Assembly: GCA_905178155.1 (NCBI GenBank) | Contig: CAJINV010000001.1 | Span: forward strand, 3,153,675 to 3,217,674 | Origin: Amoebophrya sp. A120 | Lineage: Eukaryota > Protista > Dinoflagellata | Length of the DNA stretch: 64,000 nt | Direction of reading: 5' to 3' | The notes under the pieces: model-generated | Database searches by the model: none | What the model was told of the DNA's origin: nothing | The model's input: only the letters and a program-made list of their open reading frames with translations | Shown: positions 4,401-60,477 of the stretch, piece after piece | Numbering within the stretch: the stretch's first letter is position 1 | How the letters are laid out: the number at the start of each line of letters is the position of its first letter | Position numbers and translations under genes: made by a program

Positions 4401-7400
4401 TGCGTTACTTTGTTCCCTGGACCTTGCTGCGCAGTGGTCATGGCCGTTGCGCTCGCGAAGCCGAAGCTGGAGGAGGAGGTTGTAGTGGCTGTGGCAGATT
4501 GATTCTTAGAGTTCTTGTCCTGCTTCTCATCGGCTGCATTTTGACCGGTTGTACTAGTGTCCTCGTCGTCGTTGATGAAGACAGCAACCATCGCCCGACT
4601 GATATCATCGATCACGCGCACTAGCGCTCCGGGTGACGTTTCTCTCAGCATCTCTGGCGTCGCCGCACTGGACTTGTTTCCCGCTGCTGATGATCCTTTG
4701 GATGAACCAGATATTGAGATTTCCACGCTTGCAGCGTTGTCGAACAAAGCCTGACTTTTGCCTTGTGCAAACTTGCGCAGAAAGTGGTTGAAATCTTCCA
4801 GCCCGACTTTCGTCGTAATCAGCTCCATCAACTGCCTCCCCGTGACCGCTCCACTCTCCGTTTGCCCGGCTGCTGCTGTACCGGGGCTGGATAAGTGGCA
4901 AACTATCAGCCCGAGGACGACGGCAGAGGCGGACCGGAATCGGTCAGGAAAAGTTTCCTTCCGCAGAATGCCGAGAATCGCATTTAGGTGGAGGCTGGAG
5001 TTGGTTATTTCGCGAATCAAGGGCATCAGTGAAGAGGGTTGTTGATTTCCTTGATGCTGTTCGGCCTGGCTGTAGGTCGTGCTACTCATCCTGGTGATCA
5101 AAAACAGAAACTTCAACACGTTGTGCAACACGAAGAGCGTTTGGGAGCTGTGAAGTTCCTCTTTCTCTTCGTGGGACAAAACCTGGGCGGAATTCTTCTC
5201 CTGTTGCTGGATCAGGGAAGAGAAGTCACGGGTTTTAATTCCGGAGGACGTGGCTGCTGCAGCAGCAGATACAGTCGTCGCATTCGCACTTTTGATAGTA
5301 CCCGGACCCTGAGACTGTGCCGAGCCCGCACTTCCCTTGCTCCCGGAAGCACCTTCGCTGGTCGACGCTATAAGCGGGAACCTTTTCTCCGGAAACTCCG
5401 CATCATTTGCGATGCACTTGGACCACCGCAGACTCGCGGTTACCTTGTCGATCAACTTTCCTCGGTTCGTTAATAACCCAAAAAACTTCTTCCTCACCTC
5501 TTGTAACTGCGTCTTCCCGACAATCGCGGTCAAATAGCTGAGCCACTCCACCGCAAAGTAGCAATTGTGCGTGCTTCGAAACCAGACATCCATGTCGCAG
5601 CGCTCCAAATCCGACAGAACGCGGATCACCTGTTTCCCGCAGGGCGTGACGACGACGCCGTCGACTGCCGTTCCGCTGGAATTTGTGAACGTGTCCGCCA
5701 GATACTCGGCTGGGAGGTCAAACCGGACCACCAGCTTCTCTAGCACGACGAACCGCAGTTCTTCGGGAAGTGTTTCGTCAAACACCATGTGAAACCACCA
5801 CTCGTAAGCGGGAACGTCCGAAGCGGTTTTGGTGATGCGAGCAGCTGTAGATGAGGACGAACTGCTTTTCGTCTTTGCTGTTTGGCAAAACTCTTTGTAG
5901 TACTTCCCCCCCAAGACATACGCAAACACGGTTTTCTCGTCGGCAGTTGGCGCAGCAAACCTGGTGGAAGAATTGATCCCCGCAACGGTGACGCTGTCGT
6001 TGCTCGAAGCCCTGCCTCGGTGAAAGGCACTGTTGTCTTCCTCACTCTGCATATTGACGTCGGAGGAGTAGGTGCTGCCCAGGCTGTCTTTGCGAGCAAC
6101 CGCTGTTCCACTACCTTCGAGAGTTCCGCCCACCCCGCCTTTCGGCATGCCGGCCACCAGTTTCGACAGGAGGTGCACAGACCGCAGCAAGAGGTCATCA
6201 CCGCTGCGGAACACGCCCGTTTTCTTGGACAGCATGGGGACGAAGCGCAAACAGAACCGTCTCGTGTCGTCGAAGCGACCGAAAGTGCAGGAAGTGTTGG
6301 TTTGCGAAGTTGCGTCGTGATCTGCGTAAAACAGTTCCACGATGTTCAAAATCGAGGAAAAAACCCGGGTGTCCGCTTCCTTCACGGTCAGCAACTGCTC
6401 GCACTTGTGGACTAGTCTATCCGCGGTTTCGTGTTGCTGCCGGAGGAATCGCCTGGAGACTTCTTTTCCTTCTCTGATCAGCAGCTCCATGGTCTGCAAA
6501 ATGATCAGCGACGGCTGCTCATTCCTCAATAACCACTGCTGCCCCTCGTGCGTCTCCTCAATCCCCCGGAGCAGAATATCCACGCCTTCCTCGAAAACCG
6601 CCCCCGAGCACATGTCCGGCGAGTTGGTGAGAAAAATCCGTAACAGCGAGATCGCCAAAACGCAACTGCGCTTCTGCCGGGAAATTTCGTCCAAGTCCCC
6701 CGATTCCCCCGACATATTGTCAAACCCTGCGAGCGCGAGCAAAACAGAAGCGGAAGCCCCAATTATCGGGGCAGGATTTATTCCAGCACCACCATCTGCA
6801 TTTTTGCCCGTCGCGGAAGTTGTAGATGATGTTGAAATCCCACCCACGTCGCACGCGCGCAACAACCTGGTCAGGTACTCGGGTTCCTTCCGGAAAAACT
6901 CTTTCCCAAATTTCTGCGCGCACTGAACGCTGTTCTCCGATAGGGTTAGTAATAACGGAATGTCCAGAAGCTTCAACAACGCCTCCCCACACGAGCTCGT
7001 GATGATTTCGAAGAAGTACCCCCGGTCCTCCTTTCTCGTGTCCATGATGGTGCGGACGACTTGATGCAGCACGGAAATCAAATCCTTTTCCAACCGCAGG
7101 CGCTGCGGCTCCTCGAACGATTCCGCTAAACTCGCCCATGGATTCTCCGCGACGAACTCTGGCGTGACGGGCTATGGAACTCCACAGCTCCGCGTTCCCC
7201 TCATTTGTGTTGCATGAACAGCAACACAAACGCTGGCAAAGATGCAGCTTTTGCATGACAACTTTCTAGAGGAGTGTAGTGCTGTTTTGGATTCCGGAAT
7301 CTGTCATGCAAACAGTGCTAACGGGCAAAAGGTGGATTTGGGATTTTGCATGACAAATGAGAGAGAGGGGAGTTGTGCACTTTCATACGGGCTCGCGCAA

Positions 7401-8072
7401 CCGGACCAGTTGATGCAGGATGACGCTGAGAAGTTTGACTCGCATCGGGTCGTTGGCGAGGACCTCCACTGCCTTCGGGTTATGGGGCTCTCAAACGTTA
7501 CATTCTCAACTGTTACATGATTTGTCATGCAAAAACGCTATCACTTTTCACAATTTCAAACCTTCTCCGCATGACAAGTTCTCGACACGCTAGATAGCAT
7601 TGTAATCTGCTCCAAACCTGTAATGCAAAAGGAGCAAGCTTTTCCCTTTCACTTTTGCCATTCTTGCATTACAAATTTCATGTAACAGTTGAGAATGTAA
7701 CAGTTGAGAGCTCCATACGGGTACGTCTCCACATACGCCCGCAGCTCGCCGACACCTGGTAGATATTTTTTGAAAAGGTAAAAAGTAGAGTCTCTTTATT
7801 CAGTTGTATCACGGTCATCCCCCTTGCTTTATCATCATGTTACGGTTCTTTATCTGAGAGCGAAATATGTGAGTTCAAAGTGCGGTAGGTCCAACTTCAA
7901 CGCGACGATTTTCTATACCGAATAACCATTTCTGGGGCAGCCGCAGGACGTGCAATATTCGGTCAATTTCCTCGGGAGAATCTTGCTCGATATCCAGCAG
8001 GACTGAGGCTTGGTCGGCAAATTTGTCGGCGACCTCGCCGAGCTTGTCAACTGCTTTGAAAAGAAAAGTCAT
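1403..8072 (-). CDS. Large protein (about 2000 aa): helical/ARM-like N-terminal region, coiled coil, low-complexity region, C-terminal WW domain; architecture loosely like a Uso1/p115 tether
   Basis: The 1896-aa ORF extends upstream via GT-AG intron 7756-7918 and two introners, giving MTFLFK...QKWLFG-VGELRAYVETYP-KAVEVL...LREP-VTPEF...RLEKDL in frame. WW motif LQPGWGKYATEDGDFYYFNTLTGESSWDPP. Confidence 0.8.
7173..7387. mobile_element. Introner (215 bp, degenerate TIRs, 5-bp DR CGGGC)
   Basis: TATGGAACTCCACAGCTCC.../...GGAGTTGTGCACTTTCATA; CGGGC at 7168-7172 and 7388-7392; removal restores host frame. Confidence 0.85.
7481..7717. mobile_element. Introner family B (237 bp, about 40-bp TIRs, DR CGGGT)
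   Basis: TATGGGGCTCTCAAACGTTACATTCTCAACTGTTACATGA with inverted copy at the right end; CGGGT at 7476-7480 and 7718-7722; same TIR as 30696-30930. Confidence 0.95.
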
Positions 8073-8738: not shown

Positions 8739-10175
8739 CTAGATATGGAGCCGTTTAAAAATCTTCGACTCCGGAATCGATTTGCTGGGCATCAAACTCT
8801 CACAACCTGCAACACCACCACGACTATCGTCTGCGACGGTTGTTTCGTCTGTACTGTGTGCCGCCTCGACGATTCGAATGGCCTCTGCAACGAGTCCCGG
8901 AATGATCTGCGCAAGCGCCTCCGTGTTCGTATGCAATGCCGGGTTGCGGTTGGCTTCCAGTAAAAAAACCTTTCCATCCTCGCCAAAAAGGAAATCGCAG
9001 CCGAAAAGTTGAAAACTTCCGAGGTGATTCGGGTTCACCTGTCCCTGGATGATTTCTGCAAGGCCCTCCATCGCGATTTGCAAGCCCTTTTGGTACTGTT
9101 CTTGTACTTGATGTTGACGTTCTTTGCTGGTGCAGAAAGGAATGGTGGTGTTCAAGAATTTTGTATCAAACACCTGGACCAGATCATTCATCTCCACACT
9201 ATACTGCTCCGCGCCGAGGTACTCCCTTTGCACCCTTTGGTTCGTGATGTGCCGCGCGGAGGTCTCCAGATCGGTCAGGTCGAACGGACAAGCACAGGAC
9301 TTGAGGTACGCTACAGGGACGACCGGTGCTGCACCTCCAGGGTTTTTCTTTCCTGCATCTTCTTCAAATGGACAGGCGTAGTAGGCCAGAAAGGGTTCCA
9401 CTCTAGCGACCAGCAGGAAAACACGCACGTCGAATTTGCGCTGTGAAGTCGTTAAGAGTGGTGTCTGCAGGTACTGCTGCACGATCCCCGTGGGCTTTAT
9501 TTTCAAGTTATGGCTCATCTTCGCCGACGAGAATTGGTCTTTCAAAAATGTCACAAGGTTGTCGAAGTTGGAAAAAACCTCAATTCCCTTGCCACGGTTG
9601 TTGGTCTGCGTCTTGTAGATCCAGTGGGAGGAAGATTTTTTATTTTCGTGCGCGCCCTCTTGACCGTGAATTTTAACGAGTTCTTTCTCCTTTTTCTTCA
9701 AGACATCCGATACCAAGAAGGTGGGGAGGTACCAGGGCGGAAAATCTTCCTTTGACAATTCCGTCTTCGTTTCTGTCGAATCGGTGCTGACGTTCCTTTT
9801 CTGCCACCACTGGCTCACGCTCTTCAGCATGCCCTCTTTGGTCCCAATAGAGACGCCATGAAGCTGGTTAGCGAAGCGAAGGTTTTTGTTGAGACCACCT
9901 CTTTGTCCCACCAGTACGCTGAAATCCACTGCGAACGCATTCTGCGCCCACTGAAAGACAGGTGATGAAGAAACGCCGTCCTCTTTCAAGGTACTGTCCT
10001 CCTCCGCCGTCTTTTCCTTTTCCTCGATAACGCCTCGTAGAAAGTTGCCTGTTTCCCGTCCCAAAACGACAATATCTTTGTATCCGCGGCTCCGAAGAAT
10101 TTGCTCGATCAAGCCCGGGTTGTTGTCTTTGGCAATGCGGCACAGGCCCTTTCTGTCTCCAGTCGACGACGGCAT
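8739..10175 (-). CDS. Tubulin-tyrosine ligase-like (TTL/TTLL) ATP-grasp protein
   Basis: Motifs WIYK...RGKGI, IVQQYLQTPLL, RKFDVRVFLLV, HITN, FQLFGCDFL...LLEANRNP. Confidence 0.9.
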   Translation of the reverse strand: MPSSTGDRKGLCRIAKDNNPGLIEQILRSRGYKDIVVLGRETGNFLRGVIEEKEKTAEEDSTLKEDGVSSSPVFQWAQNAFAVDFSVLVGQRGGLNKNLRFANQLHGVSIGTKEGMLKSVSQWWQKRNVSTDSTETKTELSKEDFPPWYLPTFLVSDVLKKKEKELVKIHGQEGAHENKKSSSHWIYKTQTNNRGKGIEVFSNFDNLVTFLKDQFSSAKMSHNLKIKPTGIVQQYLQTPLLTTSQRKFDVRVFLLVARVEPFLAYYACPFEEDAGKKNPGGAAPVVPVAYLKSCACPFDLTDLETSARHITNQRVQREYLGAEQYSVEMNDLVQVFDTKFLNTTIPFCTSKERQHQVQEQYQKGLQIAMEGLAEIIQGQVNPNHLGSFQLFGCDFLFGEDGKVFLLEANRNPALHTNTEALAQIIPGLVAEAIRIVEAAHSTDETTVADDSRGGVAGCESLMPSKSIPESKIFKRLHI

Positions 10176-10732
10176 GGTCGCGAGCGAACCTATCTTTTTC
10201 AGGTCGAGGTCCAGCGGTGGAAAAGAAAAAACTACAGGTAGTCAGGTACCAGGGTTGAAGCGGCAACAAAAGCAACACCTTTTTCTTCTTTTAGTTTTCC
10301 CGCTCTGTACTTTAGCCGTCGCTCCACGACAAGATTGTATTTCCGTTTTGGTTTTGAAAGTCTCTCGTACACTCTTTCCTCTCCCATCTGTCGCGCCTGT
10401 TTGTACTATTGTATTATCCCGAAAGGAAATTTGACGACGATAGAACAGCTTCTGCACCATTGATTCGTCCGTTCTTCACACAAAGTAACAAGAAATCTGC
10501 ACAGCAAAAGCTCCTGAGTGACAGAGGCAGAAAAAAGGCAATACAGGAACGTCAGATAATTAACACCTCCTGGCTCATTATATGCGCGTTGATCATTCTT
10601 TCTCATCTGTGCACATGTGCAAATTAATCTCCGAAAAAGGCGAAAATCGTCACAGTCACTACCCAATGAATATGAAGTTGCAGGATCGTTCACCATGATA
10701 CCGTTACCGACTCGTCAACATGATCTTGCTCA

Positions 10733-26829: not shown

Positions 26830-27921
26830 CTAGTGCACAATTGATTTCTTCGCACGCTTGTACAAATTTGCATTTGCGAAATTCATCTGCGAGAAACAGA
26901 TACAGAAACGCATGTGGAGAAAAGACATACAGTACTCAGCCGAGCTGGTCGCTGGTCTCGTGGTTGGTGACCTGCCTCTTGTCCTCTGCTTCACTTCGGT
27001 CGCGGCCATCACTGCCTCCCCCGCTGTCAAGAACAATTTCGGCAATCGCAGCAGTACTGGCAACAGTGCGCAGAACACCAACAGCCCGAACGTCGCCTGC
27101 GCCGCCGGGTCCTCGTAGATTGCCTTGATGAAGAGAGCCTGCACAAACTCCGAGGTGTTCGTCTCTACCGTCACCTCCGACAACGTTTGTCGCAGCATCC
27201 GGCCCGTCATGGGGTAGAGGAGCGCGCCCGGGACGGTCGAGAACGCGGTGAGGAGTGTGAAATAGGAAAAGGAGATGCCCATGGCTGCTTGGCTGGCGTT
27301 GACGAACCAGAAGGGGAAAAACGCGATGTAGCGGATGAAAATAAGCGAGGCGACCGTGTCGATTATGTTGTCCGCGTTTTTGATTTCCCTTTCCATCTTC
27401 TTAAACATGGTGGAACTCGTATCCAAAAAGCTGTGCACGCTGTCCCCAAGGATCAAACGCCAGGAAATGAAGGAAATCATCGCGCCCAGCATGTAGCCCG
27501 TGTAGGCAATGGCGGAGGCGAGCGGTTGCGGGAAGAACAAGCCGGCGCACGTCGCGAGAAAGGTCGCACCAGGCAGGTTGAATCCGACGCACGCGGATTG
27601 GAAGCCGACATACGCGATGGGACCGAGAATCGGGTTTCTCGTTATCATGCCCTCGATCTTCTCCTTGCTGTTCTTCAGTGCGTGAAGTGAAAGTGCGTCG
27701 CCATACCTGACGTACACGAAGGCGGCGAGAGCGAATAACGCGAGGAAACCGAGAAAGCGAAGGAAGAGAGTGAGCTTACTCGATTTTCTCTTGTAGTTCG
27801 CTGGCTCTTTTATCGACCCTTTTGACGCGGTGCGGGAGCTGGTGCTTCTGCTTTTATCCCGTTTGATGGAGGAGGAGCTGGCGCTGCGCTCCATCGTGGT
27901 CCTCGTCTTCGGGGACTTCAT
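26830..27921 (-). CDS. DedA/VTT (TMEM41/TVP38-like, SNARE-associated) membrane protein
   Basis: LPGATFLATCAGLFF, GAMISF, FIRYIAFFPFWFVN, multiple TM helices. The true 3' end may be spliced differently. Confidence 0.85.
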   Translation of the reverse strand: MKSPKTRTTMERSASSSSIKRDKSRSTSSRTASKGSIKEPANYKRKSSKLTLFLRFLGFLALFALAAFVYVRYGDALSLHALKNSKEKIEGMITRNPILGPIAYVGFQSACVGFNLPGATFLATCAGLFFPQPLASAIAYTGYMLGAMISFISWRLILGDSVHSFLDTSSTMFKKMEREIKNADNIIDTVASLIFIRYIAFFPFWFVNASQAAMGISFSYFTLLTAFSTVPGALLYPMTGRMLRQTLSEVTVETNTSEFVQALFIKAIYEDPAAQATFGLLVFCALLPVLLRLPKLFLTAGEAVMAATEVKQRTRGRSPTTRPATSSAEYCMSFLHMRFCICFSQMNFANANLYKRAKKSIVH

Positions 27922-28556: not shown

Positions 28557-31500
28557 TCACTCCACCGTTTTTTTCTTTTTCTTTTTCCCGCCCGTCATTT
28601 TTGTGTACGTCGAAGGCTCACTCTGCTCATCCCCCGCCGCGGACCCCGGTCCACCCGAAAGCGACTGCTGCGACGGGGACCGCGGGCTGGCCGTCGAGTT
28701 GTTTTTCGGCGACATGCCCAGCGGCAAGTTCGCGTCGGACACTTTCAACCGCTTTTCGCCGCCGCCCATGTAGTCCAGCGTGCGGTCGTCGACGATGATG
28801 TAGATCTTGCCCTCCAGCTCCGCCAGCCGTTTCCTGATGGCGATGCAGATCTCCTTGCAAGTCACCAACAGCTGTTCGTTGCTGTGCATGCGGTTTTCGA
28901 ACCGGTTCGCCTCTGTGAACTGTTCGAACGCGATCTTGTCGACGGAATTGTGTACAAAGTTCTCCAGATTCACACTGGCTTTGTATTGCAGTAATAGATC
29001 CACCATCTTCTTGTCCACCTTCCGGCACGCGATCATCAGCGGCGTGTCGCCCATGTCCGGGTCCCGCCCGTCCACCTCCGCGCGGCGGTCGAGCAGGAGT
29101 TTGACCGCCTTCACATCTTGCGACTTCACCGCGTCGAGCAGACAGTTGATCGGCGGCACCATGCCGATGCTGTCCACAAACATCCTGGTGGAGATGCGGC
29201 ACCCGATCTTGCAGGCGAGTTGGAAGAGATGGATGTTGGTGCTGACCCGCGGCTCGGACTTCAGAAATTTCACAACCCGGTACCGCTTGTTCTTCACGGC
29301 GTACCAGATCGCGTCGTGACCTAATTCGTCCGTGTCGAGTGTGATGACCGGGTGAATTAAGCCCGGGGTTTTGTTCAACTCTTGCGACGTCCGGAACATG
29401 GAGGAGGTGGACGTGGTGTGCTTCGACTTGCTGTTACTAGAGGACTTACTGTTGCTGGAGTCGATGCTGCCGCTGGTTCGGTTCATCTTAGACGTGTTAA
29501 TGGTCGTCTGCGGACCTGTTGTACCGAGCGTCTGCGCGCCAGTTGGCGGTGCGGCCGTGGACCCGGTCTTCTGCCATGTTTTATTTTCTCCGCCAAAACC
29601 GCCGATAACGGGTAGTCCCGGCATTGGACTCGCGTTAGTACTTCCGCCACCCGCCGGGGACCGACCGCCGACCGGAGAGGACCCAACGGTGTTGGGCGAC
29701 CGCGCGCCGGGCCTCGCGGGCGTATTCCCCCCGCCGCTCGCCGAGCCGCTTTTCGGGCTGTTGGTGCTGGACCGGTGAAGTGCTGGGCTGTTTCCCCCGC
29801 CGGAGGAGGATCCCTCTTCGCGGCTCTTCGCGAACGCCTGGGCCCGGGCCGTGTTCGGCGCGGGGGTCTTGATCGCCTTGCCCGGGTACTCGCCCATGGC
29901 CTTCATGGAATAGAGCGGCGCCGCGCGTCGTTTCTTCTTCTTTTTCTTTTTCGTCACGTATCCCACAGAAAAAAGCTGGCAGGGCATATTTGTATTGCAA
30001 AAATAAACACAGAAAAATCTGTCATGGGCGACATCGTAGCATGCTATTTCGGGTATGCAATTATTTATTTTTGCATTACAAATACGACCTGCCAGTTTTT
30101 TTCTGTGTGATATCACTTTCACCACCGTGTCGACCACGACCTCCTCCACAAAATCGCCGAAAATCTCGTTCTCGTCGCCGAACATACCGAGTTTCAAGGT
30201 TTTATTCCAGTGATGGGGGCCCCCATCCACCTCTTTCTGGAACCCGGTCACGGAGTTGGTCTTTATGGTCGGGTTGTATGCCGTCGCGTCCACAATGTTC
30301 TGCGGCTCCCACGCTAGGTGGAGCATCTCCGCCCGGCCGCGCAGTTCCGGCTTCAGCTGCACGCCCTCGGTATCAACTGTAAAAATGTCTGGGTCTGGAA
30401 GAATCCAACTTGTCATGCTGATTTTGGATTCTAAAAAAATCTGTATTGCATGAGCAGCAAAGAGAGTCCAATTTGTGCTACACGGAAAGAGCATTTGTCA
30501 TGCGGTCTAGGCATCAGAAAGCCCTCACAAAATCTGTGATGCTAAGGCATGCATCACAGACATCAGGAGTCGTGCAAAATGTGCATGACAAACCCGGTAA
30601 TCTTCCAGACCCAGACATTTTTACATTTGATACTCGGGGAGTTGGGGTCGGGGGTCGGGCGTGTAGAGCACGAGGTCTGGGTTGTCCGGAACCGGTATGG
30701 TGCTCTCAAACGTTACATTCTCAACTGTTACATGATTTGTCATGCAAAATGGCCATAATTCTCCAGACGATCAAGCTGCTTTGCATCACAAATTCTCGGA
30801 AGGCTAAATAGTACTGTATTCCGGATCAAACCTGTAATGCAAGACGCGCAAGGTCCTCCCTCTCACCTATGCTAGTCTTGCATCACAAATTCATGTAACA
30901 GTTGAGAATGTAACGTTTGAGAACGCCATAACCGGCCCGTACATTCTCGGGGGTGGCGGTTCTGGCGGCCGCTCCTCCGGGGCATTTTTCCACTTCATCG
31001 AGGTTGCGGCTTTTAGTTCCAGCTGTTGTTTTTGGGATAATCATGTGCGATTCGCTAGGGGTAGCAGGAAATGAAAGCTGTACTAGATCACCACGAACCC
31101 TCCAGTGTCGCAGGCATCTTCTGCTTTGCACGAAGGAAAAAAAGAATGATTGAAAACCAAACGAAAAAAAAAACCAAATCAAGTTAGTACCCTCTGCTTC
31201 TGCCTGGCCTTCTCTTCGTCTTTGACCTTTGCGATCGTCTGCGAGTACCTGGGCGAGGAAAACCCCGCGGCTACCGCCTCCGCGGCGTCGACCGCCCGCA
31301 CGCCGTGTTTCTGCATCTCGGCGGCGCGCGTTTCCAAAACGGGCGTCTGGAAGTCGTACCGGAACCCCCCGGGTGCTTCCGGGTACATCCAGGGGAAGGA
31401 GTGGAAATCGTACACGATGTCCTTGTTTTGGTTCTCCAAAACCAGCGACTCATTCAGCCACCCGCCGTTGATTTCCGCCTGGCGCTGCAGCAACACGCAG

Positions 31501-35470: not shown

Positions 35471-35490
35471 TTTTTGTGCCGCGAAATCTC

Positions 35491-36793: not shown

Positions 36794-38168
36794 TCACATC
36801 GCGATTTTTGCCGCTTTCGCCAGCGCCACGATCTCCTTGTCGCTGCGCCATTCTGCTGGAAGTTGCTCAAGTTTCGTGAGGTCCTCGATAGTACTGCCAT
36901 TTGCCGCTTTCTTGCGTAGCAGCCGTTTCATCATCTCCCTCGCGTCTTGCGGCGGGCTTTCTCTGTTTCTCCATCTCAGCGTTTCCACCGCTTTCGCCAC
37001 AAGGACGTCGCGAAGTGTTTTTGCCTCAACAAGTTCGCCGTCCTCAGTTCGAAGTGTGTCGAAAAACCAGTTGCGACGAAGGAACGGGTCCCTCATTAGG
37101 GCCACACCCTCCTCCACCACACGCGCCTGCAGAAGAGGCAGCCGAAACGTTGTAATCTTCCTGACAGTGGACGACGACGTGGACGAGTTCTTTCCATGTT
37201 GCCCAATCGCATTCTCGAGTGCCGTCCGGAACTTGAAGCAGGTAAGTCTGATTTTTTCCCTCCAATCGTATAGTGCGGGTGCGCTGCTGTAGTCTAAATC
37301 CGCCCCTCGACCACCAAATCGACCTGGTACGTTGAGTAACTGCATCCGATGCTCCACATCGAACAAAAACGCCGCTAGAAAGCGGAGTTCGGAATCCTTT
37401 TGTTCCTCTCGACCGTTATTTTTCCAAACTTCGTCTTCGACGTCTCTAGTCCGAACTTTTTTCCCAACATTTTCCGCAGTCTGCTCCCACTTCGCATGAT
37501 AGGCCCGCTCCAGCAGCGACGATGCCTTATTGTGGAACAGGCTCCTGTCAGAATTGGACGAATCCAGACCAGTGTCACAAGTCCTCTTGTGCGCAGCAAT
37601 CGTTTCCAACGCTTCCTGCGCTTTGTAGTCGGTGGAGTCCGCAACGTTGCCCGAGGATACCTTTATGATCTGCTCAAAGAAGCCCCTGGTGTTCGGGCTC
37701 GTGTACCATCTTTTCTTTGCTGGTTTTTTGGCTTTCGGCTTGGGTTCGGCTTTCGCTTTCCCTTTGATCGATGTCTTGATCGAAGTCTGCGTACCGCTAG
37801 TACTTCCCGTGAGGGTACTAGAACTGCTCGCACCCTTATTCAAGAAAAAAACACCATCACAATCACTTTTGCACATTTTTGCAATACAAAAAATTTTGTC
37901 ATGCGCAAAAATGCATCACAGTCAAGACTTATACGCGATTTCCCTTTGTGTTTTTGCAATACAAGAAAAATTTGTCATGCGAGACAAATTTCTGATGCAA
38001 AACCTCCCAAGTGTGATTGTGATGGTGTTTTTTTCTTGCATAACCCTCCGCAACAGGCACAGAACCGCCCTTCTTCGCGCGGACGCCACCACGTCCCTTC
38101 GCCTTCGGCACGGCAGCGGAAGTGGCGAAGAACGCCTGTGTCGTCGCTAACCCGATCCAGAGCAGCAT
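36794..38168 (-). CDS. Hypothetical signal-peptide protein, probable retrogene, interrupted by one introner
   Basis: MLLWIGLATTQAFFA...PVAEG joins ASSSSTLT... in frame after removing 37837-38042 plus one DR. Confidence 0.8.
37837..38042. mobile_element. Introner (206 bp, DR ACCCT)
   Basis: TATTCAAGAAAAAAACACCATCACAATCAC / GTGATTGTGATGGTGTTTTTTTCTTGCATA; ACCCT at 37832-37836 and 38043-38047. Confidence 0.95.
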
Positions 38169-38291: not shown

Positions 38292-38321
38292 GATTGATAG
38301 GCCTAGGAAATGAAATCTAAA

Positions 38322-39163: not shown

Positions 39164-42100
39164 TTAGACCAAACTTCCTCTTTTTGGCTGGCTGAGGTTT
39201 TCCACCTCCGACGTTCTGACGGCCCAGGAGGTTCTTGCGGTGTCCTCCTTCATCTCCTCTCCCGCATCCATGTCTAGATCCCCAGTAGTTGTACTATTTC
39301 GCATCTCCGCCTCGACGGCACGCCCCAGCCCCTGCGACCCGCTCATCCGCCGCGCGCTGGTCCTGTTCTCGTGGGAGGTGGTTCGCGACGCTTGGCCACC
39401 AGCAGTTTTGACGTAGTTCGCGACCATGGATTGCAATTTGGCGTTTACCCACGTCCGCAGCAGCACGTGCATTTCCAGCAGCTTGGTGGCCGTTTCCCGC
39501 CGGGTGCTGGATTTTCGCCGCAACTCTTCGTGCACGACCTTCACGCAGGGCAGCATCCGCTCCACCCGCGACATCCGCTCGCGGTCCTCGAAAAGGTCCA
39601 GTTCCGAGTCCCCGCCCTGCGAATTGTTGTAGTCGCTGTAGTCCGACATCAGGTCCGCGTCCTCGGAAACGGAATTCTGCGAGTTCCGCGTTGCCCAGCC
39701 AAACCGCTCGGTGTGGGTTACCTTGGTGTTTTCAATGGTTTTTGTTCGGTACTGGAGAATGGAGCAAGTCCATCGTGGTAATGAAGTATATTTAGGTTTC
39801 AACTTGCTGCGTCGCCATGTAGTTGTGTTTGATAGAAGTCGTGCAAATAAACACAGCCCCGGATGATGAATTCGAGTCTCCTCCTCGTGGTCGTACTATC
39901 GGACAGATAAAACCAGACCTCCGCACATGCTGAAGTAAAAAACTCATTACCAGGACACTACTTAATACCTCACACCCCGCCACTCGGTTTATCAGCTTCG
40001 CGAGCCAAACCACCAGTTTGGGACGAAAGGCCGCGACCCGTGCAGCCGCTTCAATGTGCGTCTCCAGGCCGTGCTCAACGTGCGCGAGGGTATCCTTCAA
40101 CCCGGGACAAGCCGCCAGAAGCTGTTGCCGCCTGGTTGTTTACGGAGTTAAAGAATGAGGAAAGCGTTAGTGAAAATGTGATGAACGAGATGCTGTGATA
40201 GAGTGGAAAAGGCATCATCATCGTGTGAACCACAATGCTGCGGTCTTTTACTTATCTATGCGCTTGTGCAAGACAAATACCTTCCCTCATCGTGGACAAG
40301 CTCGTGCAGGTCGATGTCCTTGTCATGCAACTCAACCATGCTGCTGATGTCGTCCAATTGCACTAAAACGCTCTGCTTGCCGCGCGTTGCGCGCGCGGAT
40401 CCGGGGGTAGAGGGCCTGAAAAGTTATTGTCTTATACCCGCCAAGAGGAAGCAATGCTTCCGAAGCATGCTACATGCTCCATAGGTATTTTTGCAAACAG
40501 ACACGTACAAAACTAATACACACGCAAATCATAGATTGATAGATTGTGATACAATTGCCCGAAGGCAGCATTCCCTCCGGAGACCGTGGTGCGGTGGCCT
40601 GTTTTCCGTCGCACGCTTGCGCGTCCTGACACCGGCTGCGAACTCCGGGCACCATCGTAGCTGGCCAACATGCTCCTGCATTAGCATTCAGAAGGGATAA
40701 CGATCATTCATGTGTTTGTCGCGCTCGCGGCTGTGGTCTTGTACAATCGTCGTAGTTCTTGATCGATCTCAACAAGAAGAACAAGCAAAAAAAGAAAAAC
40801 AAATCGATCGCTTTTCCCAAAAAACACTGCTTACTTGTGCCTGCCCTGTCTCGTTGTACCCACCTGACCAGCCGCCGCCGCCGAGGGCACTAGTGACAGC
40901 CGAACCCTTTGCGCCGAGTTCGGAGTCGCTTCCTCGCCCCCAGGTAAGACCAGCCTCGCACCAACGCCAGAAGTTTTATGAGAACTACCACCGCCCCCGG
41001 GACTTGCAGGTGCAATCGCACCGCCGGTAGTTGTAGTTGTCGTCTTTACTATGCTAATACCGCTTGTTTGCTCGTCCTTGCTTCCTATCGATTGCAAAAG
41101 TGTCTGGGTCTGGAAGAATACAAGATTTGCGATGCAGGTTTTCCAGATACCATGGCTGATGGCACTTAGGATGAAGGGGGCAGTCCTCAACCAATACACA
41201 TTGGAAGAGGGGACCCCAACCCCCTGGGGGTGAAGAATCGAGGGTGGCATTGACCTACAGAAAAATGATCAACGATCAAAAATCCGCAGGCGAGAACGGG
41301 AAGGATCTTTTCAGACACCGACCCAAATCCTCTGCCAACCACTTCCCTCGATTTCACAAACTTCACTGCCGCGACGCAAGCGAAGCTGACAGGAAGACCC
41401 CGGCCACCCTTCCTCACGACCGAATTCCGAGAGGGATAAATAGTCCCCTCAGATTAGACGGAAGCGAAGGCATAGTCCCGGGGGGCAAGAAGGAATGCTC
41501 CCCCACGCCCTGAAAGCCTGGAAGGCAGACAGGGTGCTCAACTGTGCATAGTGGTTAGCACGAAGAGCTAGGGACGTGAGAGACACCGCGACGCACAACA
41601 ACCCGACCAGGTAACCCAACACTCTCCGCCTCGAGAGCCCGGGGACCAGACAGTTGTGGCAGCAAAATGAGGAAATGCCAGACGACAAGTCGTCAGCAAC
41701 GCCAAGTCATCACCAGCCAACACAGCAAACAGGGACCAGGGGAGCCAGATAGCCAACTGACACACAGCTGGGGGGAAGGCTGAATGAGAGCGCACCGTCC
41801 AAACTGACGAGAGGCCCACAAACTCCAACCCGCACCTGAAACCCGAGAGAGCGGCCCAGACCCCTGAGAGCAGCGAAGACCTGAGCAGAGCCCAAGCAAC
41901 AACGAGGCGCCCCATCTACCCATCCTGACTCCTGCCGGTGGCGAAGACGCTCCAAAGTCAGAGCATCCATCAACGGGAATTTCCGACAGAGGTTAATCAA
42001 CGACAGCACGAGGTTGAGGGCGTGCGGGCTCTTGGAGGAAAAGCCAGCGGTATGAGGAAACCAACATCGTAACAGAGAGAGTCGCGACATGGGCCTGGAA

Positions 42101-45100
42101 GAGCACGCACTGAAACGACCCGAGAGGACAAGAAGATGCCTTCGGTCACCGCGACCAGCAGACCCGCAGCTCGTTCAAAGAAACATCGCTTCGGAGTGAC
42201 GAAGGCCGCACTTCACAGCCGATCCCCGCTGACGGCAAAACTCGAGCTGGAACTCGCTGGCGGAAGAAGAATCGCGTCGAACAAGCAGCGCGTCTCGCTC
42301 CACGCCACCAAGCTTGACCCGCATCAGACTCCCGGCCAAAGAGGGTGAGGAGCGTCCGAAAGCAGCCCGACCACCGCGACGTCGGAGGACGCGAGATCCG
42401 AAGACGCTGCACACCGCGCTAGCAGCACCACCTACTGCACGCCGGCGCCGCTACAAGTACAACATGCACCACGTTAAAAACAGGCTTGGTAGAGCATCCC
42501 ACTGCGGCTTCGGCGTCGGGACGTCAGAAGGCCACGCTGCGAAGGAACCGGCGCACGGGGGACACCGAACGCCGCAGATGGGGCGCCGCTATCACAGCTG
42601 ATGGAGTGGTCCGCGCACTGACACAGATGGGTCAGCCCCGGTGCCCCCGGCAAGAAAAACAGATCGATGAAGACATCCCGAGCACCATCTTCGTATTCAT
42701 CCCGTCAACACCACCACCACCTCCACCATTGAGCCTCAAGACCCGCCCGCACCGAGAACAGACTGCGCAGCACGCTAGACACCACGACTCGTGGCCAGAG
42801 ACGGACATCTTCGTTCCACCACTATGAAGGTCGCGCTCGGAGGGCAGGTCGCCGCTATTAAAGTCGCACGCACTTCGCAGGAACCGGCCAGCGGGGGACT
42901 CCGAACACCGCAAAAGGGGCGCCGCTATCAAAGCTGAAGGTTTGGTCCGCGCACTGACACCGAAGGGTCAGCCCCGGAGCCCCCGGCAAGAAAAGAGATG
43001 AAGACAGCCCAGAATCCCGCGCCGTATCATGTAAGAGCCACGCATTGCCGCTACCAGCGCAGCCGTTGCGACACACCTGAGGTCAGTAATATCGCATCAC
43101 GTTTGTTTCCATGAGGAAAAAGGCCAAAACCAATCTGCTACCACAACAGAACCCAAAGGAAAACCGAGAGACACAATAAAAGTATAAAGTTGGTGTTGGA
43201 GAGAGAGAAGGCGCTATGGACTTATTAGAGCGGGGTAACAAAGCTCCCATAAGAAGTTACCGGCTAACTTCTCATCCACCCGGCCGGGTGGATGAGAAGT
43301 TAGCCGCAGCGAGACCCAGCAGGTCTGGAATGCGAGACCCAGCATGACAAAGATTGAGGTCTCTATCATGCCTTTTCTGCATGAGAAACTCCCTCTCAAC
43401 TTGGTCAAAAGCGGACAGCTTTTGGCACTCACGCAACACAGATTTTTGCATCATTTAGGTTTAGCATGACAAGTTCTAATCTTCCAGACCCAGACATTTG
43501 TGCAGTTGATACTTCCTTCTTGATACGACGTCGTGTGGTCCCCGCTCTCGTCCTCAACATCGTCAGCCGAAAAGTTGTCCACCGCGTCCGCGGGCAGGTA
43601 TCAAATGTAAAAGTGTCTGGGTCTGGAAACTTGTGATGCTGGGTGGCGTCTCATGATGAGGCCAGAAATGCTGGCTCAGCATCACAAGTTTCTCAGCTTC
43701 TAGGTGTTGCCTATTCTGCATGACAAACTGCGTTTCTGCATCACAGAAAAATGTAGCTCTTGGGTAACTTGCATGACATTGGTGGTCTACGGGCAGGACG
43801 TCCCGGTGGCACGAAAGCCGATAGTACAAGTTACTATAAACATGTAAAAAAATATAATATAAAACGAGAAAAAACATGTTTATCAGAGTTATGAGTTGAA
43901 GGAGGATTACCTTGCTATGCACCTCGAGGGAGGACTTGTCTTGGGTAACTTGTCTTGGGTAACTTGCATGACAGATTTAAGAGTCATGCCAGACAAGCAT
44001 GACAAACATGCATTCTTCCAGACCCAGACATTTTTACATTTGATAGGAGGAGTGCACTCGCAACAATGGTCACCTTTTTCGCCGGTGTGTTGGGACTCGA
44101 GGCGCCGCTGTTTATCTTCGGGCTCGTCGCGGAAGTTAGTACGGAAGGATCCTTAATATCTGCTTGTTTGTTGCAGCTCGCGGCGGACGTTTGCCTGCTG
44201 GTGCTGCTGCTGGTGTGTTGGTCCACTCCGAGAACTCCGGTGGTCGTTGTATCTATTGTGAGGGACGAACAAACTGGTGCACCTGGAGCGGTGGTACTAC
44301 TAGCTCCCTGTGTAGCTGCTGCTGCTGCATTTGACGTAGCTAAAAACGTCGTCCCCACATTCGACACGGGTTCCACATCGCCGAGGGCCCGAACGGAACT
44401 TTTCGCGGTCTCGCTTGATGTCTCCGGATGCTGCATGCCTCTAGGATCATCTTTCTCATTCTTTGACAAGCTCGGTGCAGTACTTGCTGCTCCTGCATCT
44501 TCGGACATCATGTTGACAGCACACTTGCCGGGCGGCGGGTCAGTGACTGCTTTTTCAAAATCTTCTCGTCCGGCTTTTTCTATTATAACAGCAGCTCCGT
44601 GGTCTCCTTCTTTGCCCGTGATGTCGGCTCTCGTGTGGTCCTGTCCCTCCTGTGCTGTTGTGCCAGTAGTTGCGCCTCCTGCACCCGAAAGACTGCTCGA
44701 CACTGTGGGTCCCCCTGCTTTACCAAAAATATCACTTCCTTTCCCCACCGAAGTAGATCCAGCCACTGCAACTCCCTTGTTCAACATTCCGTCCTTCCCC
44801 ACACGAGACGGCTTTGAGGACCCCGTTGTAGCAGCTCCTGCCCCCCCGCTGTGGCGCTTGTGCCGCGGCGAGCTGCTGCTGCTTGCTGCTTCCGTCGGAG
44901 GACTTGGCTTCGCGCCGCTCGGCGAGACAGGTACAACTAGATCGCCACCACTGGGAGGCCCTCCAGGTGCAGTTCCTGCGGTAGTTGTGGCTGTTTGCTT
45001 CGCGCCACTTGTCGGCGTCTGCGGTTGCCCTACTACCCGAGACACCATATCCTTACTCGTTCCGACCGTTTGCAGCAGGGTCGTGGAGTCCGCAGCTGCA

Positions 45101-48242: not shown

Positions 48243-49917
48243 TCAGCGCCTGTTCGACAGCTCAGTCAGTTTGTTTTTCACGGTCGTGTAGATGGTCCCC
48301 GTAGACCGATCCGGCGCGGTGTAGAGGTAGGACAAACAATTTGTCTTTCCCTGTGTGATCACGTAAAACAGCACCAGATCCTTCAACATTTCGTATTCCG
48401 CGCCCGCGGCCAATTTTGGGCTGGTAAAAACGTCCCAACTGAAAAAGCAAAACCTGCACTTTCCCCCACACAGCGGGTGGCTCGGGACCGGCTTCCGGTC
48501 CACAAATCGCTCCCACAAGTGCGGGGCGGTGTGCGCCAAGAGGTAGCCAAACACGATTCCGTAGACCAGTTCCCGGAATAAAACCAGCAGGGGCGCAGGC
48601 GGCTTCTTCTTGTTCTTCGCCTGTTTATTCGGCGCCTCTTCAAACAGGTCTTCGAATGTGTCCGGGTTGTTCAGGTCCACTTTATTCGCAGGCACAACTC
48701 CTGACGCGTTTGCCGAGGATGTACTAGATGCGGTGGGGCCCCAGGAGAGCGGGTCGGGGAAGAGTTCGGACGCGGGCGTGGCGAAGAGGAGATTGTAGGT
48801 GATCCCGCGGACTAAAAGAAAATAGCAAAACGTGAGAAACCCGATGGTGTGAAAGGCCCCGTACACGGATCGTGGCGGGTGGTGCTTGAAGTACTCCCGG
48901 TTCCATTCCGCGGCATTGAACACCTTCGTATGGAAGCGCCAGGCTTGAAGTCGACAAAACTGAAATGATTTGTCATGTATAAGATGCAAGGCACGAAGTG
49001 CCTGTCTTGCCGGGATGGCAAGTGAGGCCCTCCATTGTGAGCCTGTTTAGGGTTTGAAATAGAGCTGCGAAAGTAGCAGGACAACAGCAGTCCACCTCTG
49101 TGCCCAAACAGCGCGACGAATTGGATTCCGGTGCTCGGAAAATTTGTCATGCGCCGCTTGACAAGTGGGCTTGCGACTGGTATCGCTTTTATACGTGACA
49201 AACCATTTCACCTTTGACGATTTCAATCCTGACACTCCCATACTTCGTCGCCGCCCGGTACACCTGCGGGTTCTGCGTGCGCAGATTATAGGCCTGCTCG
49301 CCTTTGTATCGCAAGAAAAAGCTGTTTCACTGCGAACTTGTGATGCAGAAAATGGAACGCAGAACTATTTGTCTTGCTACACCTGGAAGACATTGGATTT
49401 TCAAGCGTCTTTTCCCTTGGGAAGCACACATAACAAATTTTCAGTGTCATGTGTAACAAACTTGTGATGCAGATCTTGCAAAATCATCACAGTGAAACAG
49501 TTTCTTCTTGGGATACTTTGTAGTCAAACTTGCACTCGTGCTTCTCCGCAGCCCGGTGCTTGTCGCAAAATATCAAGTGCAAAAATGTCTGGGTCTGGAA
49601 GAATGCATGTTTGTCATGCTTGTCTGGCGTGACTCTTAAATCTGTCATGCACGTTACCCAAGAGCTCCATTTTTCTGTGATGCAGAGACGCAGTTTGTCA
49701 TGCAGAATAGGCAACACCTAGAAGCTCAGAAACTTGTCATGCTGAGCCAGCATTTGTGGCCTCATCATGAGACGCCACCCAGCATCACAAGTTTCCAGAC
49801 CCAGACATTTTTACATTTGATACAAAACACGCCGCCGCAACGGCACTTCTGGGCCTGCGCGAGCAGCGGAATCTTCTTCTGGCAAAACCAGCACACGTCG
49901 CTGGGAAGGGAGGACAT
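48243..49917 (-). CDS. AN1-type zinc finger fused to a membrane domain (possibly DUF962/Mpo1-like); 3 introners
   Basis: After removal: MSSLPSDVCWFCQKKIPLLAQAQKCRCGGVFC-DKHRAAEKHECKFDYKG-EQAYNLRTQNPQVYRAATK-VFNAAEWNREYFKHHP... Confidence 0.9.
48929..49242. mobile_element. Introner (314 bp, about 55-bp imperfect TIRs, DR CTTCG)
   Basis: TATGGAAGCGCCAGGCTTGAAGTCG.../...CGATTTCAATCCTGACACTCCCATA; CTTCG at 48924-48928 and 49243-49247. Confidence 0.9.
49307..49515. mobile_element. Introner (209 bp, DR CTTTG)
   Basis: TATCGCAAGAAAAAGCTGTTTCACTG / CAGTGAAACAGTTTCTTCTTGGGATA; CTTTG at 49302-49306 and 49516-49520. Confidence 0.9.
49571..49822. mobile_element. Introner family A (252 bp, DR CAAAA)
   Basis: Family-A TIRs; CAAAA at 49566-49570 and 49823-49827; splits a Cys codon of the AN1 finger. 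Confidence 0.95.
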
Positions 49918-52569: not shown

Positions 52570-55307
52570 TCAGTACCCGAAGGTAGTGAAGGCTCCACCA
52601 TGGGCACCGGGCCCGGGCGAAAGTGATCTCGCGCTGCCCCCCTGCGATCTCCTGGGAACCATGGAAAACCTGTTATGTTTGTTTGAAAAAATTATGCTGT
52701 GAAAATAGGCAAAGGCAAAGAAGGTGGGAACTAATGTACTTCTTGTATTATTCCAGCAACACATCATCATGCTTTCATCTATCACTGTGTAAGAACAGAG
52801 TGCTTGACTATACCTTGGTGTGGACATGATGCTGGGATGCGCAAAGCCCACCGTCGTCGGATTCGTGTACTGTCCTGGCCCTGGACTCTGTGCTCTCTTC
52901 GGGGTGGGTCGCTGCGACGTCGCTGTTTTATATTTTATTCAGTCACCGCGGAAGGATCACCCTATGGATGATCGCTCGATGGGAGCATCTCCCACTGCGT
53001 CGCACGAGGAGGCGCCCTGGAAGCACCTACCCCACCGGCGGAGGCCGGTACGCCGAAGCAGCCCAAAGAACCCGGCGCGACGCCTGCGGCCAGACGATGA
53101 ATTTGGGAAACCGGTGCGCCCCATAGACGAAGGCGTAGCGATGACGACGGACCGACCAGTGGCATGTGCTCGAAGTGGAAAGCTTCGAGCGGACAAAAAC
53201 CGATAGCCTCGCGGCCTCGCGTTGCAATGGGATCGGAGGATCAAAGGACAATAAACCAAAGAAAGCCAAGGGCCTTGGCTTGGGAAAAAGTTCGCAAGGG
53301 TAACGGGTTCGAACCGCCAGTGCCAAACGACCCTCCATCCCAAAGCAAGGCGAGACCGCATGAATTCGTATTCTCGCTGATATCGCCAACGTCAACGAGA
53401 ATACAATCAGGGCTGCCAACACTGTCCGTACAACGGATAAACCCAGAGATGCCCAAATCTGTCCGCAAAGCGGATTGGTCTAAACTTTCCGCCGAGCGGA
53501 TGAGATCAAACTTTCCCCCAGGCGGATAACCACAACTTTCCGCACAGCGGATGAGACCAGACTTTCCGACATGCGGATGCGACCAAACTTTCCGCCAAGC
53601 GGGTAAACCAAACTTTCCGCAAAGCGGATGAGACCAGACTTTCCGACAAGCGGATAAAAGAGACTTTCCTGAGGCGGATGGACCAAACTTTCCGCAAAGC
53701 GGATGAGACCAGACTTTCCGACAAGCGGATAACCAAACTCTCCGCAAAGCGGATGAGACCAAAGTTTCCGACAAGCGGATGAGACCAAACTTTCCGCCAC
53801 GCGGATAGCCAAACTTTCCGCAAAGCGGATGAGACCAGACTTTCCGACAAGCGGATAGAAGACACTTTCCTGAGGCGGATGGACCAGACTTTCCGACAAG
53901 CGGAGAAAAAACACTTTCCTGAGGCGGATGGACCAGACTTTCCGACAAGCGGATGAAAAAACTTTCCTGAGGCGGATGGACCAGACTTTCCGACAAGCGG
54001 ATAAAAGACACTTTCCTGAGGCGGATGGACCAGACTTACTACCATCGGCAGGGGCGTTACTCCCTGAGGATAAGAGAGAAAGGAAATAAACTTCAACCCA
54101 GACCGGGAAGAGGTTCACCCTCTCAATCATCTTGTCCTGGCTACCGGAAAAGGGCGAGGCTCGGACATGTATAAAATATCGCCCGTCCAGCCTCAGCCTA
54201 GACTCACAGGCTCGCTAGCCTGCTACTGCCCGGGCATACATTTATTTAGGTGAGGTTTAATTCGGCTTTGCGGATTTACATACTGTGAGTGCAACGACAC
54301 ACTAAGAGCAGTCGAACTATGACTTCACGGGGTGGAAAAAACGAATTCAAAAGCAGTACGCATCTTCCATGCAGGCCCAATAAGGTCTCGTGATATGGTA
54401 TAAGCTCCCGGCCCCGGTGTTGTTGGTCCTGTTTTTTGGAAATAAAATAACGAACCAAATTCAAATCCGCAAAAACAATGAGAAAACACGCAGCTGAGTA
54501 CTGTGCTCGCGAGGGTCAAGAAGCGACACCGATACCGATTTCTATTTCAAAGCGGTTCTTCATACAATTACGATTGGCGTAGTAAACGTCTCCTCCTAGA
54601 AAATTATGAGTCACAAAAATCATATAATTTCGCAAGCAACTAAGAGTATACTCTTGAAATCCTTTGCCCGGCCGTACATGCTGGCTGATATGTCGCTGAG
54701 TGCTGGCTTGAAGGCGTAGGTTCCGGGTCCTGGGGTTTGCGCTCTCCTGGCACTTCCCATAGCGCTGCCGGCGTCGTCGCGACTCGATTTGGAAAACACT
54801 GTTCGGCCGGAGGCGGGCATGGTGCTTGATAGGAAAAAATTTGGCGTGTACGTTCCCACCGATGGCTTTTTGAACGGGGCCTGCGTAAAGGCATCCCGCT
54901 TCTCGTGAGAAAACACGGCGCTTGGAGGTCTGCTATGCCTGTAAAAGTTTATTTTTGATACTTCGAGGGTAGTCTTTTCTTGAGCTAAGCAGCACCGTCG
55001 TACGGGTTGAAGTGAAAAGTACGAGGGAACAAAACTGTGGAGGGAAGAAGGCGGGAGCGAAACGAAACTCCTAATCCAAAGCTCTATCTCTTTGATGTTG
55101 AAACTGAAAGTGAACAAATATGAAAATCCACTGACTGTAGTACCTTGCGTCGACATTGATATCTTGCACGTGATAGCCTCCTGGACCGGGTCCGAGCTTG
55201 TTCCTCCTTGCGGTGACTTTGTCCTCTTCTCTCCCGGTAAGCGTCCACTTTGGCGCCTTCCTGATGTTGCTCAGCGAGGTGCATAACGGCCCCGCTGGCA
55301 CCGACAT
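52570..55307 (-). CDS. SHIPPO/ODF3-like (PGPGxY repeat) axonemal protein, 4 exons
   Basis: GPGPGGY, PSVGTY, TPGPGTY, TPGPGAY and, beyond a proposed 1.7-kb intron (52642-54342), SPGPGAH...TTFGY-stop. The last exon link is inferred. Confidence 0.75.
53453..54037. repeat. Complex minisatellite of about 22-27-bp hairpin-forming units
   Basis: Units such as GACCAGACTTTCCGACAAGCGGAT, CCAAACTTTCCGCAAAGCGGAT and ACACTTTCCTGAGGCGGATG recur in mixed order, more than 20 units. Confidence 0.9.
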
Positions 55308-59800: not shown

Positions 59801-60477
59801 GTTCCTATACGCGGTAGCACCAGCCGACGCGGTGCTGCTACTTCCACTGGAAGAAGCTGTTGCGGCCATCGTTAGACATCAAGAAGAAAAATCCCTATCT
59901 CCGCTCGCCATATCAAAACGGAAGTCTGTGATGGAGATTTGTGGTCACAGATCAGCTTTGTCATGTTAGAAGGGAAAAGATGCGGACTGTAGTACTGGGT
60001 TGCGTGGGAAAGCCTTTGCTTCATCTTCAGCATGACAGGAAGCAGTGCAGCTGGAGGTGGGAGACAGCATGACAAATTGCCTGCAAACGAGGCCACAACT
60101 GCGGCTCTTGGCCCTCTAGCAATACCAGTCGATTTGCGTACTCAAATACAGCAAAAAAAATTTCGTTTCCGATATGGGGAAGGGTTTTTTTTTCTTTTGG
60201 ATATTAGGTTCCTATTCTTCTCCGCTTCTTCCGCGGCCGCGGCGGCTCGCTTCGCTTCCTGCTTCTCGGCCACGTAGTACTCCATGTCCTGCAGAGAAAT
60301 TTTGTCGACGGCTCGCCAGCAGGTCCCGCTGCGGACCAAGTACCGCTCCGGTGCGGGAATGACCGCGTTCGGGTCCGCCCATTCGACCAGGTAGTAGGAC
60401 CAGTCGTACAGGTGCGAATCCAGCCAGTGATAAAACGCAAACAAGGAACTCCAACTGGCGCCGAAGCCGAAGGTCAT
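56807..60477 (-). CDS. Multi-exon hypothetical protein with low-complexity centre and C-terminal hydrophobic segment
   Basis: MTFGFGASW...KNRNL-TMAATASS (across the introner), ...YRHPR-WKKIQPY (GT-AG), ...EFVLIW-VERGPWWNGF...DVE-stop (GT-AG) all join in phase. Confidence 0.75.
59877..60203. mobile_element. Decayed introner (327 bp, DR TTAGA/TTAGG)
   Basis: Degenerate TIR (CATCAAGAAGAAAAATCCCT..CCATATC vs the inverted right end TATCCAAAAGAAAAAAAAACCCT..CCATATC); internal GCATGACA motifs; removal restores frame. Confidence 0.75.

Follow-up and report, generated by a model that had tools for sequence, protein, structure and literature searches.

Why do introners with different ends carry the same short internal motif in both orientations, and is this motif read by the machinery that moves the elements or by the one that removes them from RNA? 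We analyzed this question on a 64,000-nucleotide stretch of Amoebophrya sp. A120 (contig CAJINV010000001.1, positions 3,153,675 to 3,217,674, hereafter the window), for which an earlier reading of the sequence, the original prediction, had proposed the motif as a candidate shared recognition code for a transposase or for a non-canonical splicing factor. In the available text of Farhat et al. 2021 (PMC7789003), A120 introners are described as about 240 nt long, with many families and non-canonical splice sites, bounded by inverted repeats starting with TAT, seven variable bases and an A-run, and by short border direct repeats. Judged from sequence, the motif is probably the strong half of a spaced palindrome, whose copies, in nearly all groups, form doublets 30–33 bp apart at distances from the end of the element that equal whole turns of the helix, and would bind a dimeric protein on double-stranded DNA, thereby helping to assemble a transposition complex. 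On the best reading, the array is selected for transposition and is not an RNA splicing signal.

The motif, TGTNATGC, was found at 43 sites in the window on both strands, compared to 7.6 ± 2.6 in 100 dinucleotide shuffles (largest 14). Elements were delimited without use of the motif, by TAT...ATA ends and at least 14 of 18 matching positions between the terminal inverted repeats (TIRs), which yielded 11 elements; the twelfth (59877..60203) was added from the coordinates of the original prediction and an RNA joint. Together these 12 elements (5,284 bp) contain 40 of the 43 sites. The remaining 58,716 bp hold three (35016, 40321 and 56279), at or below chance, and ten RNA-confirmed GT-AG introns (3,041 bp) hold none. 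Enrichment over background was thus found, and the scarcity in flanking DNA that had been judged by eye, the persistence in the decayed 59877 element and the number of sites per element were confirmed by recount. The elements are listed below with their target-site duplications (TSDs) where given; signs denote the strand of a site, and centres are those of the palindromic units described further on.

7173..7387: introner of group E, TSD CGGGC, sites +7206, -7253, +7302 and -7348; dyad centres 45, 77, 141 and 172, that is, two doublets.
7481..7717: introner of group G (family B of the original prediction), TSD CGGGT, four sites, +7523, -7569, +7619 and -7666; centres 54, 85, 150 and 182, two doublets.
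29959..30112: short introner of group M, TSD TCACG/TCACT, sites +29991, +30020 and -30073.
30371..30632: introner of group A (262-bp type), sites +30411, +30442, +30496, +30535, -30551 and -30583, five exact and one variant; 30535/30551 form a complete spaced palindrome.
30696..30930: introner of group G, four sites, +30738, -30783, +30833 and -30880; centres 54, 84, 149 and 181.
37837..38042: introner of group I, terminal sites facing outward; three exact sites, six by a weight matrix trained on the same elements that it scores.
41086..43511: introner of group A, 2,426 bp long owing to a motif-free insert, end sites kept (+41128; -43342, -43379, -43433 and -43464).
43599..44045: introner of group A (252-bp type), inverted relative to 49571 and carrying an insert, seven exact sites.
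48929..49242: introner of group H, weak array with one exact site.
49307..49515: introner of group C, sites +49339, +49370, -49428 and +49463.
49571..49822: introner of group A (252-bp type), six exact sites; centres 53, 84, 117, 137, 176 and 208.
59877..60203: decayed introner, group F-like by eye, starting with CAT, TSD TTAGA/TTAGG, two exact and two variant sites; the first doublet is shifted to 62/94 (intact copies: about 55), the second is widened to 37 bp, and the sites of the right end are gone.

Beyond the window, a scan with the TIR pattern of a single family selected 149 loci, of which 148 belong to a single assembly (contigs JACKZZ01...) and the last to Ga0209788. The family analysis covered the window and 59 large loci free of overlap (471,564 bp), giving 193 elements in 22 clusters, which we merged by eye into 13 groups; for the conservation tests, 80 small loci and those parts of two others that did not overlap were added (258 elements). 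The exact motif was present in 252 of these 258 elements, with 811 sites compared to 21 in composition-matched simulations, and in 21 of the 22 clusters, the exception being a 111-bp piece nested inside another element. Its recurrence in both orientations across introner families, as originally proposed, therefore stands. Within the large loci, DNA homologous to the elements carried 12.0 motif sites per kb and all other DNA 0.26 per kb; of the 99 residual sites in the latter, 41 were clustered and probably mark missed elements. The consensus extends beyond eight bases to AAA(T/C)(T/C)TGT(C/G/A)ATGC(A/T/G), with a weak mirror half-site 15 bp on. After masking of the motif and of the 15 terminal bases, cross-family BLAST recovered five pairs only, all length variants or nested pieces. 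A BLAST comparison of the window with the second assembly retrieved no orthologous insertions.

The elements fit published A120-type introners as far as the available text of PMC7789003 describes them. TAT...ATA ends are present, TAT being a search criterion, and a family-weighted logo of the ends showed A at 0.64–0.86 over positions 11–15, the fit of this A-run being loose in groups E, G, H and K. An exact 5-bp TSD of random sequence flanked 130 of 173 strong TIR pairs and an exact 6-bp repeat none of the 173, a clean 5 bp as compared to the direct repeats of 3–5 nt in that text. Accordingly, the TIRs, which the original prediction had called unrelated, are not wholly so: their interiors differ, but TAT ends, A-run and 5-bp TSD are common to all families, and some end haplotypes are shared. 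In groups A, B and D, 11-base end haplotypes (positions 4–14) are common to several families, one of them reading as an outward motif copy at position 4. Left and right TIRs covaried at nominal p<0.05 at 3 of 33 positions and were otherwise independent; together with the shared haplotypes, this suggests exchange of ends. The elements have the TIR, TSD, short length, lack of coding capacity and many copies typical of miniature inverted-repeat transposable elements. Summed DNA contig depth was ~1e5 in group A bins and ~45 in unique bins, values which are not copy numbers. The group A TIR gave no match in a viral collection, and a search of Rfam at gathering threshold returned none.

Positional bias from the element ends was pronounced. 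For the first inward site, all 13 group-level distances to the end were 33–34, 43–45 or 54–56 bp; they represent 11 of the 13 groups, the other two carrying outward sites only. The phase of these distances gave a Rayleigh R of 0.91 at 10.5–11 bp, a value reached in 0 of 20,000 uniform draws. Tandem sites were spaced 31–33 bp apart in 10 of 13 groups and convergent sites 45–49 bp apart in 6 of 13. A mirror half-site, GCA[T/A], was present at +14 to +16 in 27% of strong sites compared to 0–3% at other offsets, indicating that the unit is a spaced palindrome, TGTSATGC-N7-GCA(TSACA), of which the motif is the strong half and whose centre lies at +11. With this centre, tandem pairs at 31–33, convergent pairs at 45–49 and divergent pairs at 16–17 bp all resolve into dyad doublets 30–33 bp apart. 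Using one representative per group (14, picked by motif score and not by spacing; 69 sites), we counted 31 doublets compared to 5.6 ± 2.3 expected (0/5,000), and 13 opposite-strand doublets compared to 2.8 expected, with the maximum at offset 11 (best-offset null 0/1,000). Among held-out unmasked clusters, 7 of 26 steps fell at 31–34 bp and 2 of 26 were perfect dyads, and a family not used in the analysis (L020:505-1608) showed by eye centres at 54, 86, 140, 173 and 222.

Elements of 109 bp typically hold one doublet, those of 215–255 bp two and those of 280–320 bp three, and the array spans the whole interior with module periods of about 75, 81–85 or 93–95 bp. The first dyad centre lies mostly at 44–45, 53–56 or 64–67, in a minority at 30–34 or 39–43. 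Spacers inside doublets were dissimilar between families by eye. As a side observation, convergent pairs were also considered as nested TGT..ACA micro-elements; this was ruled out by eye in the examples viewed, their flanks being inverted and not direct repeats.

Substitutions were analyzed in five clusters (111 copies). Those shared between copies affected 48 of 3,948 core positions compared to 939 of 11,325 other interior positions (0.15x), and private ones 77 of 3,948 compared to 312 of 11,325 (0.71x). The private core ratio rises from 0.31 to 0.81 as sample size grows and is 0.78 in old and 0.61 in young copies. In the same copies TSD mismatch is 2.5% per site pair, bracketing the core private rate of 1.95%. 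Length changes of more than 2 nt are as frequent in doublets (30 in 11,986 bp) as in linkers (35 in 13,286 bp, p = 0.90). In old spliced copies the core comes close to the neutral decay by which the original prediction would be refuted; this speaks against a splicing role and does not refute a role in transposition.

These data also bear on the possibility that the motif goes back to a single ancestral module which was duplicated and shuffled, and that it no longer has a function. The end features common to all families and the exchange of some haplotypes make common ancestry likely. However, the spacers no longer show detectable similarity, yet the motif and its spacing have been retained; shared variants are 7-fold rarer in the core; and the spacing of the dyads is maintained even where the strong half changes from one side to the other. 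We therefore consider a functionless relic very improbable.

With respect to removal from RNA, we relied on RNA-like contigs from four runs of one sample, whose 'RNA' label is a guess, although they skip ten GT-AG introns, and whose contig form would conceal partial intron retention. In 4 of 4 runs these contigs skip 48924-49242 (319 nt), 49302-49515 (214 nt), 49566-49822 (257 nt) and 59872-60203 (332 nt), each piece consisting of the element plus one 5-bp TSD, with no GT-AG. In another contig 37832-38042 is skipped (37831 joined to 38043), and in one further contig 82 letters connect 44046 with 41080, which is the size of the exon expected if 41086-43511 and 43599-44045 were both removed in this manner; from this the removal of these two is deduced. 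Junctions are thus at hand for 7 of the 12 window elements (four direct in 4/4 runs, two indirect, one in another contig). A raw-read RNA run, X9, gave 200 reads, every one only a partial match. In silico removal of element plus TSD leaves the minus-strand frame open over all 12 junctions, and 11 of the 12 elements carry stops in all three minus frames; template switching in complementary DNA synthesis could shape exact joints, but the open frames indicate that removal is needed in the cell. At 59872-60208 and 43594-44050 the two TSD copies differ (at the fourth base in the latter), and the RNA retains the distinguishing base of the upstream (5') copy. The removed piece therefore starts at TAT or immediately upstream of it, and its last part is the downstream copy of the TSD.

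Both the weak-array element 48929-49242 and the decayed element 59877-60203 were among those skipped in 4 of 4 runs. The depletion of shared variants, the looser conservation among private ones and the removal of broken arrays suggest together that the array is kept mainly in lineages still being copied. The TIRs alone fold into a predicted terminal RNA stem, the decayed copy included, and in symmetric families the end motifs extend this stem.

The motif might act in RNA, as a site for a non-canonical splicing factor or as arms of internal stems, since none of the 10 canonical introns but every one of the 12 window elements carries it, and the lengthened stem of symmetric families would fit as well. 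This reading is largely refuted and retains the slightest probability. In group D (family F3), in which all sites have one orientation, five copies carry them in sense only and four in antisense only (gene strand called from open-frame length; 9 callable of 14 copies). Of 80 convergent pairs, 24 had complementary variable bases, equal to the shuffled value of 24.0, and a 10.5-nt phase indifferent to the strong half would have no obvious meaning in single-stranded RNA. Strand indifference, lack of covariation and a palindromic target together indicate recognition of double-stranded DNA. Hence, the shared code of the original prediction is upheld across families and its transposition side is favored by a helical, strand-independent geometry and by conservation that is strongest among shared variants, whereas its splicing-factor side is disfavored by the sense and antisense copies, the absent covariation and the continued removal of broken arrays.

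A DNA-bound array could nevertheless also, or mainly, direct transcript removal, if the bound protein looped the element and joined the TSD copies, with co-transcriptional excision or a polymerase jump. In line with this, exactly the element and one random-sequence 5-bp TSD are lost, in either orientation and with no GT-AG, each of the 12 window elements lies within an open frame of the minus strand that it interrupts, private changes in the core still amount to 0.55–0.8x those at other positions, and the 2.4-kb copy retains its end sites; moreover, U1 small nuclear RNA was not found in A25 or A120 according to the available part of PMC7789003. We regard such DNA-guided removal as unlikely because the shifted, broken and lost doublets of 59877-60203 and the weak array of 48929-49242 did not prevent skipping in 4/4 runs, doublets show no shortage of phase-breaking insertions, TSD mismatch gives a range that includes the private rate of the core (0.0195), and the TIRs suffice for a predicted terminal RNA stem.

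The target sites show a palindromic preference. Over 250 sites, the preferred bases were T (-13) and G (-11) on the left side of the TSD and C (+11) and A (+13) on its right side, each with a frequency of about 0.5, and outside the large group A clusters this preference persists, weaker for C (C 119/304, A 155/304). Such symmetry is as expected of a multimeric DNA transposase. Coding sequence appeared to surround 229 of the 250 sites, compared to 57% of random sites, and 21 of 250 were non-coding, by a weak classifier that calls coding 70% of exon pieces and 32% of intron pieces. Whether the array serves a DNA step outside cut-and-join, as iteron-like sites of copy-out replication or as sites of a host chromatin protein keeping source copies accessible, was also weighed. 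Its extension over the whole interior and not the ends only, with regular periods of about 75, 81–85 and 93–95 bp, agrees with this, and selection on shared variants suits any copying step. In contrast, the constant helical phase of the sites relative to the TAT end, together with the 5-bp TSD and the symmetry of the target preference, links the array to the processing of the ends, and there is no direct evidence for a replicative intermediate; we judge this alternative improbable.

For the preferred reading, a role in assembling the transposition complex, we infer binding, the identity of the protein and its chemistry as follows. Dimers of a transposase, of an element-encoded partner or of a co-opted host protein would bind each dyad, two dimers per doublet lying on one face of the helix, with one, two or three doublets per element scaling with length. 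The bound dimers would set the cutting subunit on the TAT end, and staggered joining would yield the 5-bp TSD. One protein system could thus mobilize families with different TIR interiors. Removal from RNA would rest mainly on the TIR stem, a structure predicted in the decayed copy as well. A protein with two jobs, reading one phased doublet code both to build the transposition complex and to loop the chromatin-bound element so that the transcript loses the element and one TSD, appears doubtful. If true, it would amount to DNA-templated intron removal without the usual spliceosome signals, and would explain the tolerance of tens of thousands of coding-exon insertions in a lineage reported without U1.

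Several observations weigh against the transposition model. At columns without a shared variant, the private core rate is 0.0186 compared to 0.033 elsewhere (0.56, p = 1e-4), compatible with some selection after insertion. TIR positions 16–30 are conserved like the core among shared variants but are family-specific, which a single-enzyme model does not explain, and steps of 18, 20, 39 and 49, off the 10.5-bp grid, are common in some groups. A Pfam scan of 90 open reading frames (ORFs) over ~0.5 Mb revealed no transposase or integrase domain. The 238-aa ORF L020:768-1481 of the longest clean orphan element matched only itself and one relative at 37% identity, and in the available text of Farhat et al. 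(PMC7789003) no transposase is reported in A120. As regards long candidates, several apparent ones proved to be mis-paired ends around host exons. The element L020:505-1608, a 1,104-bp TIR element of a new family, carries the array at its left end only and a GC-rich, repetitive interior, in which no transposase was found.

Several protein sites at fixed helical spacing from a cut end are a feature of Tn7 and Mu ends, of RAG 12/23 spacers and of the Fis enhancer. Tn7, Mu and RAG/Transib also produce 5-bp TSDs; their termini (TGT..ACA, CAC..GTG) differ from those of the TAT...ATA elements, and a pairing rule akin to RAG 12/23 is absent here, as left/right distances of 34/42, 43/43, 34/34 and 54/53 all occur. 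CACTA/EnSpm elements, with CACTA termini and 3-bp TSDs, and pogo elements, with TA TSDs, are not matched in termini or TSD by the elements studied here.

The array would work like the subterminal binding arrays of TIR transposons, but across families and with helical phasing. In the Emigrant element, subterminal repeats are bound cooperatively by Lemi1 proteins (PMC1636448), and TnpA binds those of En/Spm (PMC2613891). According to the available parts of these studies, both systems resemble the present one in their short internal repeats in both orientations, in cooperative binding by a transposase or partner and in the effect of arrangement on the complex. There, however, the motif is family-specific and in Emigrant a partial copy of the TIR, whereas here one motif serves across families and, unlike in Emigrant/CACTA, fills the whole element with strict helical spacing. 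GingerRoot (PMC6839031, available part) resembles the present elements in its TA...TA ends, its TIRs and its GC-rich target sites, which lack a TSD consensus, but has a 6-bp TSD and TIRs of 100–150 bp compared to 5 bp and about 20–55 bp here; the integrase of Ginger integrase-like transposons was not found in the 90 ORFs. In the accessible part of Gozashti et al. (PMC12130899), 21 of 58 A120 family rows are mostly assigned 'TIR DNA, Unknown', and family 38, with TIRs and Copia/Gypsy-like ORF homology, could not be matched to the present groups. Euglenid non-conventional introns (PMC11282704) share a TIR-based terminal stem, TSD-like repeats and non-canonical borders; in the available text their conserved signals lie in the stem (CAG/CTG), with no mention of an internal phased motif.

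As for A120 itself, the available text of PMC7789003 gives terminal inverted- and direct-repeat motifs only, and neither an internal motif, its geometry nor a target preference; its supplement text contained no match to the motif strings, 'internal' or 'MEME' (figures not covered). The motif is not described in the available parts of PMC7789003, PMC12130899, PMC11282704, PMC6839031, PMC12005148, PMC1636448, PMC2613891 and PMC11453091, a set that excludes Roy et al. 2023 (Curr Biol), which may bear on novelty. Introners of A25, in comparison, are TTA-ended, and AT5/Kv have none. The motif grammar bears on how Amoebophrya-type introners move and how they exit mRNA: it offers a bait for pull-down and a sharp mutational test (insertion of 5 bp versus 10 bp), provides a signature for autonomous and decayed elements, and gives a means of telling selection for copying from selection for splicing. 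An array crossing families suggests how many TIR families could use one mobilizing system.

The motif-free insert of the long group A element (41140-43306) is GC-rich and contains a 143-bp direct repeat (42537/42873) and a perfect 46-bp palindrome at 43261-43306. It has no Pfam match and no RNA cover at 41634-42967; DNA depth was 112.7 on the contig at 41140-41940, unique contigs having about 42. A 1,437-bp canonical intron contains a minisatellite (53453-54037), made up of about 22 repeats of 25–26 bp with an internal TCCGC...GCGGA palindrome.

Host genes are found in minus-strand ORFs at 1406-7171, 8742-10241, 26833-27981, 28560-30497 and 32809-35223, with WW, tubulin-tyrosine ligase, VTT, ankyrin and WWE plus PARP domains. 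The long ORFs and all ten confirmed canonical introns lie on the minus strand, similar to co-oriented gene blocks. Finally, among 118 private insertions in 18 element alignments, 51 are of 3 nt and 16 of 6 nt, although no reading frame applies, and 15 of these 67 are exact tandem duplications; this excess possibly reflects a bias of mutation throughout the genome, which would be of interest for the rapid evolution of proteins reported in the group.

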